Assembly (NCBI GenBank): GCA_039000165.1
Contig: JAWBTW010000014.1
Coordinates: 1-17,944, forward strand
Direction: 5' to 3'
Length of the DNA stretch: 17,944 nt
From: Candidatus Aenigmatarchaeota archaeon
GTDB taxonomy: Archaea; Aenigmatarchaeota; Aenigmatarchaeia; CG10238-14; SCSR01
The position numbers and the translations under genes are program-made. The notes below the pieces were generated by a model that saw only the letters and a list, made by a program, of their open reading frames with translations, was not told the origin of the DNA and did no database searches. Shown here piece after piece: positions 6,987 to 7,124 of the stretch (its first letter is position 1; every line of letters begins with the position of its first letter).

Positions 6987-7124
6987 CGCCGGGGCTGGGA
7001 TTTGAACCCAGAAGGGGCAAAGCCCCAGTAGGTTTCTCAGAATTCAAGTATCATCATTATTCAGATACCTCAGGCTTCTTCATTCACTCGAGCCTACCGC
7101 GTTACCTTGTTCCGCCACCCCGGC
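6987..7124 (-). tRNA. tRNA-Ser(CGA) with a 53-nt intron at canonical position 37/38 (intron 7034-7086)
   Basis: Acceptor GCCGGGG/CCCCGGC plus discriminator G; anticodon stem GTAGG/CCTAC; loop CT-CGA-G^A; long variable arm GGGGC-TTT-GCCCC; T arm CTGGG-TTCAAAT-CCCAG. Strict bulge-helix-bulge: CUCG/UGAG central helix, two 3-nt bulges, GAAU/AUUC outer helix. No encoded CCA. Mature length 85 nt. Confidence 0.96.
7034..7086 (-). ncRNA. Putative C/D-box methylation guide sRNA formed by the tRNA-Ser intron
   Basis: C box AUGAAGA (7083-7077), 12-nt guide AGCCUGAGGUAU, D' CUGA (7064-7061), AUA, C' AUGAUGA (7057-7051), 10-nt guide UACUUGAAUU, D CUGA (7040-7037). Confidence 0.8.

Follow-up and report, generated by a model that had tools for sequence, protein, structure and literature searches.

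A probable box C/D guide RNA in the intron of an archaeal tRNA-Ser(CGA) gene, with a predicted target in 23S rRNA

The intron of a transfer RNA (tRNA) gene, tRNA-Ser(CGA), of a Candidatus Aenigmatarchaeota archaeon is very probably a genuine box C/D guide RNA, which would be released by splicing and whose D' guide would be aimed at 23S ribosomal RNA (rRNA). The intron occupies positions 7034..7086, on the minus strand, of the window, by which we mean the whole stretch of 17,944 nucleotides (nt) analyzed here (positions 1 to 17,944 of contig JAWBTW010000014.1, assembly GCA_039000165.1). The data directly support its boxes and their conservation, the coding of the protein machinery by the genome, a bulge-helix-bulge (BHB) splice motif as a feasible fold and a guide-target match with covariation. 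The intron is not a lone oddity: its genome has two of this kind, and they belong to a habit that tRNA-Ser genes show across the class. All window features described below lie on the minus strand.

Box architecture and conservation

The tRNA-Ser(CGA) gene spans 6987..7124 and has a long variable arm and a discriminator G. It scored 42 bits with the Rfam tRNA model (gathering score, 29), and ARAGORN in intron mode called it as tRNA-Ser(cga) with a 53-nt intron. The sequence and the ARAGORN structure place the 5' exon, ending in C32 U33 C34 G35 A36 G37, at 7087..7124 and the 3' exon at 6987..7033. The interval that a first-pass annotation of this DNA had assigned to a guide RNA is exactly the intron under the canonical 37/38 splice placement. 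Neither default ARAGORN nor an Rfam scan in gathering mode made any call in the whole window, and both missed the tRNA at 6987-7124; the guide inside it is therefore likewise unreported by them.

Read 5' to 3', the intron is UGA-AUGAAGA-AGCCUGAGGUAU-CUGA-AUA-AUGAUGA-UACUUGAAUU-CUGA-GAA. It comprises box C (AUGAAGA, 7077..7083), the 12-nt D' guide AGCCUGAGGUAU (7065..7076), box D' (CUGA, 7061..7064), a 3-nt linker (AUA, 7058..7060) that may form a kink-loop (K-loop), box C' (AUGAUGA, 7051..7057), the 10-nt D spacer UACUUGAAUU (7041..7050) and box D (CUGA, 7037..7040). As annotated, the four boxes follow one another in the order C, 12 nt, D', 3 nt, C', 10 nt, D. Box C deviates from RUGAUGA only once, U5 being replaced by A. 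Box C keeps the G3 and A4, and box D the G3' and A4', that the tandem sheared G.A pairs of a kink-turn (K-turn) need, and the A that replaces U5 can pair with the U2 of box D. The internal D' and C' boxes, separated by a short linker (CUGA-AUA-AUGAUGA), are conserved across the order. The class expectation for spacers is about 12 nt, the length of the D' spacer here and of the D spacer in relatives of other families.

We scanned both strands of all 25 contigs of the genome (783,037 bp, 33% G+C) with a four-box pattern (TGATGA / 10-13 nt / CTGA / 2-9 nt / TGATGA / 10-13 nt / CTGA), with 20 first-order Markov shuffles as the control. With at most 1 mismatch, the tRNA-Ser(CGA) intron was the single match genome-wide, and none of the shuffles had any (0/20). 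With at most 2 mismatches, it was joined only by an intron of tRNA-Ser(UGA), the mean for the shuffles being 0.25. RF00095, a generic Pyrococcus C/D model, returned the same two introns and nothing else from the whole genome at E<=1, and no free-standing C/D small RNA (sRNA) was found in the genome by either scan. The intron was also recovered by the covariance model described below (R1, 82.3 bits), and C/D families on the intron stretch accounted for 13 of the 20 matches listed in a local E-value scan against Rfam.

With the pre-tRNA as query against 40 relatives, BLAST found matches over the full length, intron included, in three members of the genus, three of the family and two of another family; in one family member (G012), the match occurred at two loci. 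We built the covariance model R1 on an alignment of 16 sequences (A1). Of the 118 genomes of the order, 58 gave a match to it at E<=0.001, every one of the 7 families being represented, and its aligned matches form a second alignment of 59 rows (A2). Both alignments and the model search show that the boxes of orthologous introns are conserved at the level of genus, family and order, as the first-pass annotation had anticipated for a true guide, while linkers and the distal part of the guide vary.

Two types dominate the 59 rows. Type A (30 rows) comprises 29 introns of tRNA-Ser(CGA) and one of tRNA-Ser(UGA), with a D' guide ending in GAGGUA-N or GGGGUA-N. Its boxes and guide positions 2-7 are fixed, the latter in two forms (GAGGUA/GGGGUA, 30/30 rows), and the 5 nt upstream take 15 forms. 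Type B (18 rows) comprises tRNA-Ser(UGA) introns with the D' guide ..GGCUUGAC.. and, in 15/18, a D guide containing GGAGGUG. In type B, a box C of AUGAUAA or AUGAGAA goes with a box D of UUGA. The second stem of a K-turn normally holds a G6-C1' pair, which is therefore replaced here by A6-U1'. The other 11 rows are four tRNA-Ser(GGA) introns, three tRNA-Ser(CGA) introns with other guides and four free-standing units. In a class-wide sample searched at E<=1e-4, 25 of 151 genomes matched, 12 of them outside the order; the two of these 12 that were inspected are both type B introns of tRNA-Ser(UGA).

A three-box pattern blind to tRNAs (TGAWGA / 10-13 / CTGA / 2-8 / TGATGA) matched at 53 places in 40 of the 118 genomes, compared to 6 for the reversed control pattern. 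Among the 41 loci examined, 18 had the fourth box and fell within a tRNA call that contains an intron and shows the anticodon loop of serine (CUCGAG in 14, CUCGAA in 3 and UUCGAG in 1), four of these tRNAs being mislabelled Leu or Ala by ARAGORN. Free-standing C/D sRNAs were found in addition in other genera of the order, so that hosting by an intron is the rule for the type-A guide and not for every guide in the order.

Two observations concern these other units. The free-standing four-box sRNAs of other genera (L103:1627-1682, L107:1391-1448, L101:48-108, L270-L272, L258, L260 and L256) include some that lie within about 60 nt of tRNA-Ser(CGA) on the opposite strand, and AUGCCGCCGCAU, AGCCGGUAUUAU and CAGGCAUCACG are examples of their guides. 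The four tRNA-Ser(GGA) introns (L125, L131, L135 and L137, from G025, G031, G034 and G030, respectively) have C, D' and C' boxes, and in three of them box D is CUCA, by which the BHB helix with G34 is kept and the G of box D is lost. These introns may be degenerate or differently folded guides.

Splice motif and release of the RNA

A canonical hBHBh' motif can be drawn for the pre-tRNA. It consists of the anticodon stem (GUAGG/CCUAC), a 3' bulge (AA-A), a central 4-base-pair helix (CUCG/UGAG), a 5' bulge (AG-U) and helix h' (GAAU/AUUC); two 3-nt bulges lie 4 base pairs (bp) apart at 37/38, which is the canonical BHB arrangement. The 5' strand of the central helix is C32 U33 C34 G35 of the anticodon loop (7089..7092), and its 3' strand is UGA of box D with the next G. 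In helix h', GAAU takes in the first two letters of box C, and AUUC consists of the last three letters of the D spacer and the C of box D. Constraining the fold to this motif gave -12.4 kcal/mol compared to -12.9 kcal/mol for the minimum free energy, a cost of 0.5 kcal/mol. Since the canonical motif uses their letters, box D and part of box C would be locked before splicing; this had been proposed by the first-pass annotation and is in good agreement with a constrained fold so near the optimum. In the 59-row alignment, which was fitted to the covariance model and is hence biased to the model structure, the anticodon stem covaries fully, and the pair between position 34 and the G of box D is CG in 31 rows, UG in 11, UA in 6 and GC in 3.

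The genome (0.78 Mb, 91.6% complete) holds the C/D ribonucleoprotein (RNP) genes for which a check had been suggested. Fibrillarin (283.6 bits) is encoded directly after Nop5 (231.4 bits) on contig C6, and L7Ae scored 109 bits, all three being over the Pfam cut-offs. The splicing endonuclease EndA (95.1 bits, contig C4) and RtcB (549.3 bits) are both encoded as well.

We propose the following route. In the pre-tRNA, UGA of box D and the next G would pair with anticodon-loop positions 32-35, and the closing letters of the D spacer with the intron's 5' end, which takes in the start of box C, to give the canonical helix-bulge-helix-bulge-helix. The splicing endonuclease would cleave within both 3-nt bulges, and RtcB would ligate the exons and, we infer, circularize the intron. 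L7Ae would bind C/D and C'/D' of the freed, stemless RNA as K-loops, and Nop5 and fibrillarin would then assemble on it. That the intron is excised as a stable or circular RNA, binds the proteins and directs methylation is thus predicted from the sequence. Circularization would join box D to box C through a linker of 6 nt, GAAUGA (GAA plus UGA), a length that simple arithmetic on the sequence confirms, and would give the back-joint ...CUGAGAA-UGAAUGAAGA....

Twenty sequencing runs were listed and four examined, the locus-holding runs being hot-spring metagenomes. Neither a joint skipping the 53 nt nor a back-joint was present in the four runs examined, a negative that decides neither for nor against splicing or circles. 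The label 'probably DPANN-holding metatranscriptomic WGS' is attached to two runs that behave like DNA.

One genome of the same genus (G005) has a type-A sRNA outside any tRNA, about 50 nt upstream of its tRNA-Ser(CGA) gene (G005:C1:33560-33800, minus strand). In that gene the 37/38 intron is missing, and a short intron is present elsewhere. The sRNA is flanked by CCGAG/CUCGG, with a potential CUCA/UGAG helix, two AGA bulges and a potential GAAU/AUUC helix, and the whole lies within a longer hairpin with a folding z-score of -3.2; the minimum-energy fold places the bulges slightly differently. Because a possible BHB is kept in this genome without a tRNA host, the arrangement points to endonuclease release as something that the sRNA itself may need and that may be under selection.

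Pairing of the guides with rRNA

UACCUC, the complement of the conserved D' core, occurs at positions 2731-2736 of the genome's own 23S rRNA, within GAAAAGCUACCUCGGGGAUAAUG. Positions 2-10 of the D' guide can form eight Watson-Crick pairs and one G.U pair with 23S positions 2731-2739. The nucleotide at the fifth position is the second C of UACC in GCUACCUCGGGG, that is, C2734, and alignment with the Escherichia coli 23S rRNA (GGGG from 2444) makes it the equivalent of U2441. The target is 3 nt before the GGGGAU-AAC stretch of the peptidyl-transferase ring. Pairing over 9 bp just 5' of GGGGAUAA in this ring would direct 2'-O-methylation to 23S C2734, and the predicted target is apparently 23S rRNA and not the host tRNA.

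The intron and the 23S site could be compared in 12 genomes. In all 12, the homologous site forms Watson-Crick pairs with guide positions 2-7, and in 10 of them pairing reaches position 10 or 11. The pair at guide position 6 is A:U in eight genomes and G:C in four genomes of one genus, where the 23S rRNA reads CUACCCC and the guide GGGGUA. The case for the predicted 23S target is built on this comparison across genomes and is weak from this genome alone.

The same guide core occurs in distant archaea. In a pattern scan of one genome per prokaryotic species, 89 loci were found. Among the 80 listed, 21 are of the tRNA-hosted form, whose contigs bear no titles other than Aenigmatarchaeota, Aenigmarchaeota or 'uncultured archaeon'. 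The type-A D' guide core (CUGGGGUAU or CUGAGGUAG) was also present in free-standing four-box sRNAs of metagenome-assembled genomes (MAGs) titled Thermoplasmata, Methanobacteriota and Nitrososphaerales (L153, L200, L184 and L203); with Rfam, three of these four came near the C/D gathering scores, and the fourth was well below. A 23S rRNA was not found in five MAG assemblies of other phyla with such free-standing look-alikes. Because free-standing sRNAs of other phyla have a matching D' guide core, the comparison suggests that the predicted 23S site is old and widely used.

The D spacer behaves differently. Among five same-genus copies it is UACUUGAAUU twice, UACUUAAAUU, UACUUUAAUU and UGUUGGGCUU. 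In other families it is 12 nt long, is conserved within the family and pairs with rRNA loci of its own genome: over 9 bp with 23S in G037 and G043, over 10 bp in G056, at a site some 55 nt downstream of that of D', over 10 bp in the 23S locus of G025, and over 12 bp, including two G.U pairs, in a locus of G006 that also holds the 3' part of 16S. A search of four genomes for 12-nt targets of the relatives' conserved D guide, exact or with 1 mismatch, returned only scattered matches and the intron loci. We read the own-genus D spacer as a decayed guide kept as part of the splice motif and not as a second guide. The RNA had been described as complete, which is true of its boxes, all four being present, but not of its guides, since in this genus only the D' half looks functional.

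A role of the D spacer as a Cm56 guide was considered and rejected. UACUUGAAUU pairs over 8-9 bp with G59 T-loops, with C56 at position 5, but the same-genus copies UACUUAAAUU and UACUUUAAUU have A or U at guide position 5, which speaks against a conserved function of this kind. A search for Trm56 (PF01994) gave no match in the genome assembly.

The second C/D intron of the genome, 59 nt long, lies outside the window, in a tRNA-Ser(UGA) gene on the minus strand of contig C1 (43454-43599), where the four-box scan and RF00095 detected it. It reads AUGAUAA / AAUGGCUUGACU / CUGA / CUA / AUGAUGA / GUCGGAGGUGAG / UUGA. Its D' guide pairs over 9 bp (positions 2-10) with CGUCAAGCCAAU of 16S rRNA, the equivalent of E. 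coli A1408 (own position 1428) being at position 5, and its D guide pairs over 8 bp with UCACCUCC at the extreme 3' end of 16S rRNA, where the predicted methylation site is own position 1545, 6 nt from the end. Both of its guide cores are kept from family to family, and conservation of the D' core extends to other orders of the class. According to the accessible text of PMC4644070, A1408 is a site already predicted for sRNAs of Sulfolobus acidocaldarius and Nanoarchaeum equitans.

Several observations weigh against a functional guide aimed at 23S rRNA. The covariation, an A:U to G:C co-change, is a single evolutionary event in one genus and is supportive but not overwhelming. Two of the 12 genomes (G025 and G056) have a mismatch at guide position 8. 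In this genome alone, 77 of 1,000 shuffled guides find an equal 9-bp rRNA site (positions 2-10). A crude scan of the four spacers of both introns against the rRNAs and 44 ARAGORN tRNA calls gave best scores within the range of shuffled guides, and under this score the 23S site of the D' guide is not among the top matches. We know of no report of a 2'-O-methyl group at this 23S position, although no search for one was made. On the side of the RNA itself, the D spacer has 10 nt rather than 12, and no target site for UACUUGAAUU was present in the rRNAs and tRNAs scanned. A terminal stem is missing, the 5' UGA and the 3' GAA giving one pair only, and a predicted 7-bp hairpin (AGGUAUC/GAUACUU) hides the D' guide in its 3' part as long as the RNA is naked. 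Every Rfam C/D family scored under its gathering score (best 23.2 bits, compared to 38 for sR12 and 45 for snoPyro_CD); the intron is therefore C/D-like by class without membership of a curated family. Finally, the only contig from an RNA library on the locus (run X12, 269 nt, depth 4) is unspliced.

Three other explanations were weighed against these data. The intron could be an ordinary tRNA intron with no life after splicing, its box-like words being by-products of a BHB formed with the serine anticodon loop. Box D does overlap the central BHB helix, helix h' largely accounts for the D spacer, and the tRNA-Ser(GGA) introns (type C) keep the BHB helix by altering the G of box D (CUCA). However, the needs of the BHB leave C', D', box C and the invariant D' guide core unexplained, and the shuffles gave no match (0/20); moreover, G005 keeps the sRNA outside any tRNA, and free-standing RNAs in other phyla have the identical D' guide core. 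We consider this explanation very unlikely. No more credible is methylation of the host tRNA-Ser itself by the intron C/D RNP, in cis or in trans, for example at position 32, 34 or 39, in the manner of tRNA-Trp. In the accessible text of PMC7994747 and PMC3326292, self-targeting is the only experimentally established role of a C/D RNA from a tRNA intron, and here the guide adjoins its would-be substrate. Neither spacer is complementary to the host exons, however: the pre-tRNA, one of 46 scanned targets, was outside the best six for each spacer. In addition, the D' guide is constant while the anticodon stem changes between families (GUAGG, CCGAG, CCGGC and CUGGA).

A role of an L7Ae-bound RNA as a chaperone of assembly or folding that pairs with 23S rRNA, or as a helper for rRNA introns of relatives, with methylation absent or incidental, is somewhat less unlikely but still improbable. 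The pairing site lies a few nt from 23S insertions after GGGGAUAA or GGGGAUAG in G012 and G037, and the D guides of relatives, by pairing elsewhere in the same rRNA loci, suggest tethering at two points. The tRNA-Ser(UGA) intron pairs with the 3' end of 16S rRNA. Against this, fibrillarin is kept in a genome of only 0.78 Mb and the register gives a fixed nucleotide at position 5 in 12/12 genomes; chaperoning and methylation are in any case not mutually exclusive. A splice-released guide for 23S methylation is the reading that we prefer.

Some features of the rRNA loci were noted in passing. The genome's own 23S gene (contig C8, 296-3556) is very divergent just after GGGGAUAA, at about 2745-2800, where a longer stretch of different sequence stands in place of the usual ...CCAAGAGCUCAUAUCGACG.... 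In relatives the 23S rRNA is interrupted: G012 (L058) and G037 (L061) have insertions directly after GGGGAUAA or GGGGAUAG, a few nt 3' of the D' site, and in G015 (L062) and G006 (L063/L068) the 23S BLAST pieces are split by tens to hundreds of bases. The probable cause of these interruptions is rRNA introns or expansions. An 11-nt inverted repeat, CCUAGAGGUAU ... AUACCUCUAGG, lies on either side of the 16S gene and is its processing stem (C8 near 7890 (+) and 6306 (-)). With the 3' strand of this stem, in the 16S trailer, the D' guide pairs in the own genome over 7 bp, a 1-nt bulge and 4 bp. We rejected the trailer as a target: G001 has the same trailer and leaves the guide extension unmatched, and G006 offers only 5-6 bp. 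Searches for small-subunit rRNA found 16S in 6 of 10 relatives, complete in 2. The GAGGUAU shared by the 5' strand of the processing stem and the D' guide looks coincidental.

Known systems and serine tRNA genes as hosts

A C/D guide in a tRNA intron is already known as a kind, and the cases named in the first-pass annotation, introns of euryarchaeal tRNA-Trp and of N. equitans tRNA-Met, agree with the accessible text of PMC3491384 and PMC7994747. Euryarchaeal tRNA-Trp introns guide Cm34 and Um39 of their own tRNA, as found in Haloferax volcanii and for Pyrococcus sR50 and credited to Clouet d'Orval 2001 and Singh 2004 in the portions of PMC7994747 and PMC3326292 available to us. As far as these portions describe it, the tRNA-Trp intron resembles the tRNA-Ser intron in holding a complete C/D, C'/D' guide within a canonical BHB intron, and its release by the endonuclease, as a stable circle in Haloferax, is what we propose for the tRNA-Ser intron. 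The differences, on the same sources, are that the host here is tRNA-Ser in a DPANN lineage, that the guides are unmatched to the host tRNA while the conserved guide matches 23S rRNA, that the intron has 53 nt compared to 105 nt in Haloferax, and that only one of its two spacers looks functional.

The N. equitans intron in elongator tRNA-Met (Randau 2012, PMC3491384), as presented in the accessible part of that paper, likewise comes from a reduced DPANN-type genome and gives an intron RNA with C/D features; the RNA is stable, and sRNAs of that genome are linked with tRNA genes. That intron has 66 nt, a box D and a mutated box C, with no target named in this part of the paper, whereas the tRNA-Ser(CGA) intron has four boxes and a proposed, covarying target. 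The same text counts about 26-27 mostly free-standing sRNAs in N. equitans, compared to only two detectable C/D RNAs, both of them introns, in the genome studied here.

With free-standing double-guide sRNAs (snoPyro_CD, RF00095; sR12, RF01147), the intron shares the box order, a spacer of about 12 nt, a C'/D' linker of K-loop size and a target at position 5. It differs from free-standing archaeal C/D sRNAs in being a tRNA-Ser intron without a terminal stem or a promoter of its own, whose biogenesis would proceed through tRNA splicing. Noncoding RNAs circularized through a BHB, such as the signal recognition particle (SRP) RNA of Thermoproteus in the available text of PMC4731332, and small nucleolar RNAs (snoRNAs) from eukaryotic introns are likewise small RNAs freed by the processing machinery of a host transcript. 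Hosts and enzymes differ, the snoRNAs coming from spliceosomal introns with exonuclease trimming.

Full-text searches, whose coverage leaves most subscription journals outside, turned up no publication that describes C/D RNAs in introns of tRNA-Ser or from Aenigmarchaeota. The predicted 23S site may still be listed in supplements, for example that of PMC4644070. What is new is the tRNA-Ser host, the rRNA target predicted for the guide, the splice helix between box D and the serine anticodon loop, the lineage-wide conservation and the tRNA-free copy with a BHB, together with a guide set apparently restricted to two introns in this genome.

These data lead us to a broader idea, which we advance tentatively and with less than even confidence. 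The tRNA-Ser genes may be a dedicated cradle of rRNA-methylation guides, and the detectable repertoire of this genome (two RNAs with three working guides) would be made solely by the tRNA-splicing endonuclease and aimed at the peptidyl-transferase ring (the 2441 equivalent), the A1408 equivalent in the decoding site and the anti-Shine-Dalgarno end of 16S rRNA. The serine anticodon loop, CU-NGA-G, complements box D and the following G, and any C/D RNA at position 37/38 of a tRNA-Ser would therefore make its own splice motif. If this is true, modification of the three functional centers of the ribosome would be tied to the processing of serine tRNAs. Apart from this idea, the intron gives a concrete and testable archaeal parallel to the intron-encoded snoRNAs of eukaryotes. 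With only two C/D RNAs detected in 0.78 Mb, the genome also comes close to a minimal C/D system and would indicate the rRNA methylations that are retained in a reduced cell. All 7 families of this DPANN order share the arrangement, and the sister type occurs in other orders of the class.

Two minor observations complete the description. Applied to the whole genome, ARAGORN in intron mode made 44 calls, several with doubtful anticodons or introns, and calls for Met, Asn, Asp and Gln were absent from this list. The neighbor genes of tRNA-Ser(CGA) in the window are ordinary: a nucleoside deoxyribosyltransferase-like gene, DUF123, UPF0047 and a phosphoribosyl pyrophosphate (PRPP) synthetase.

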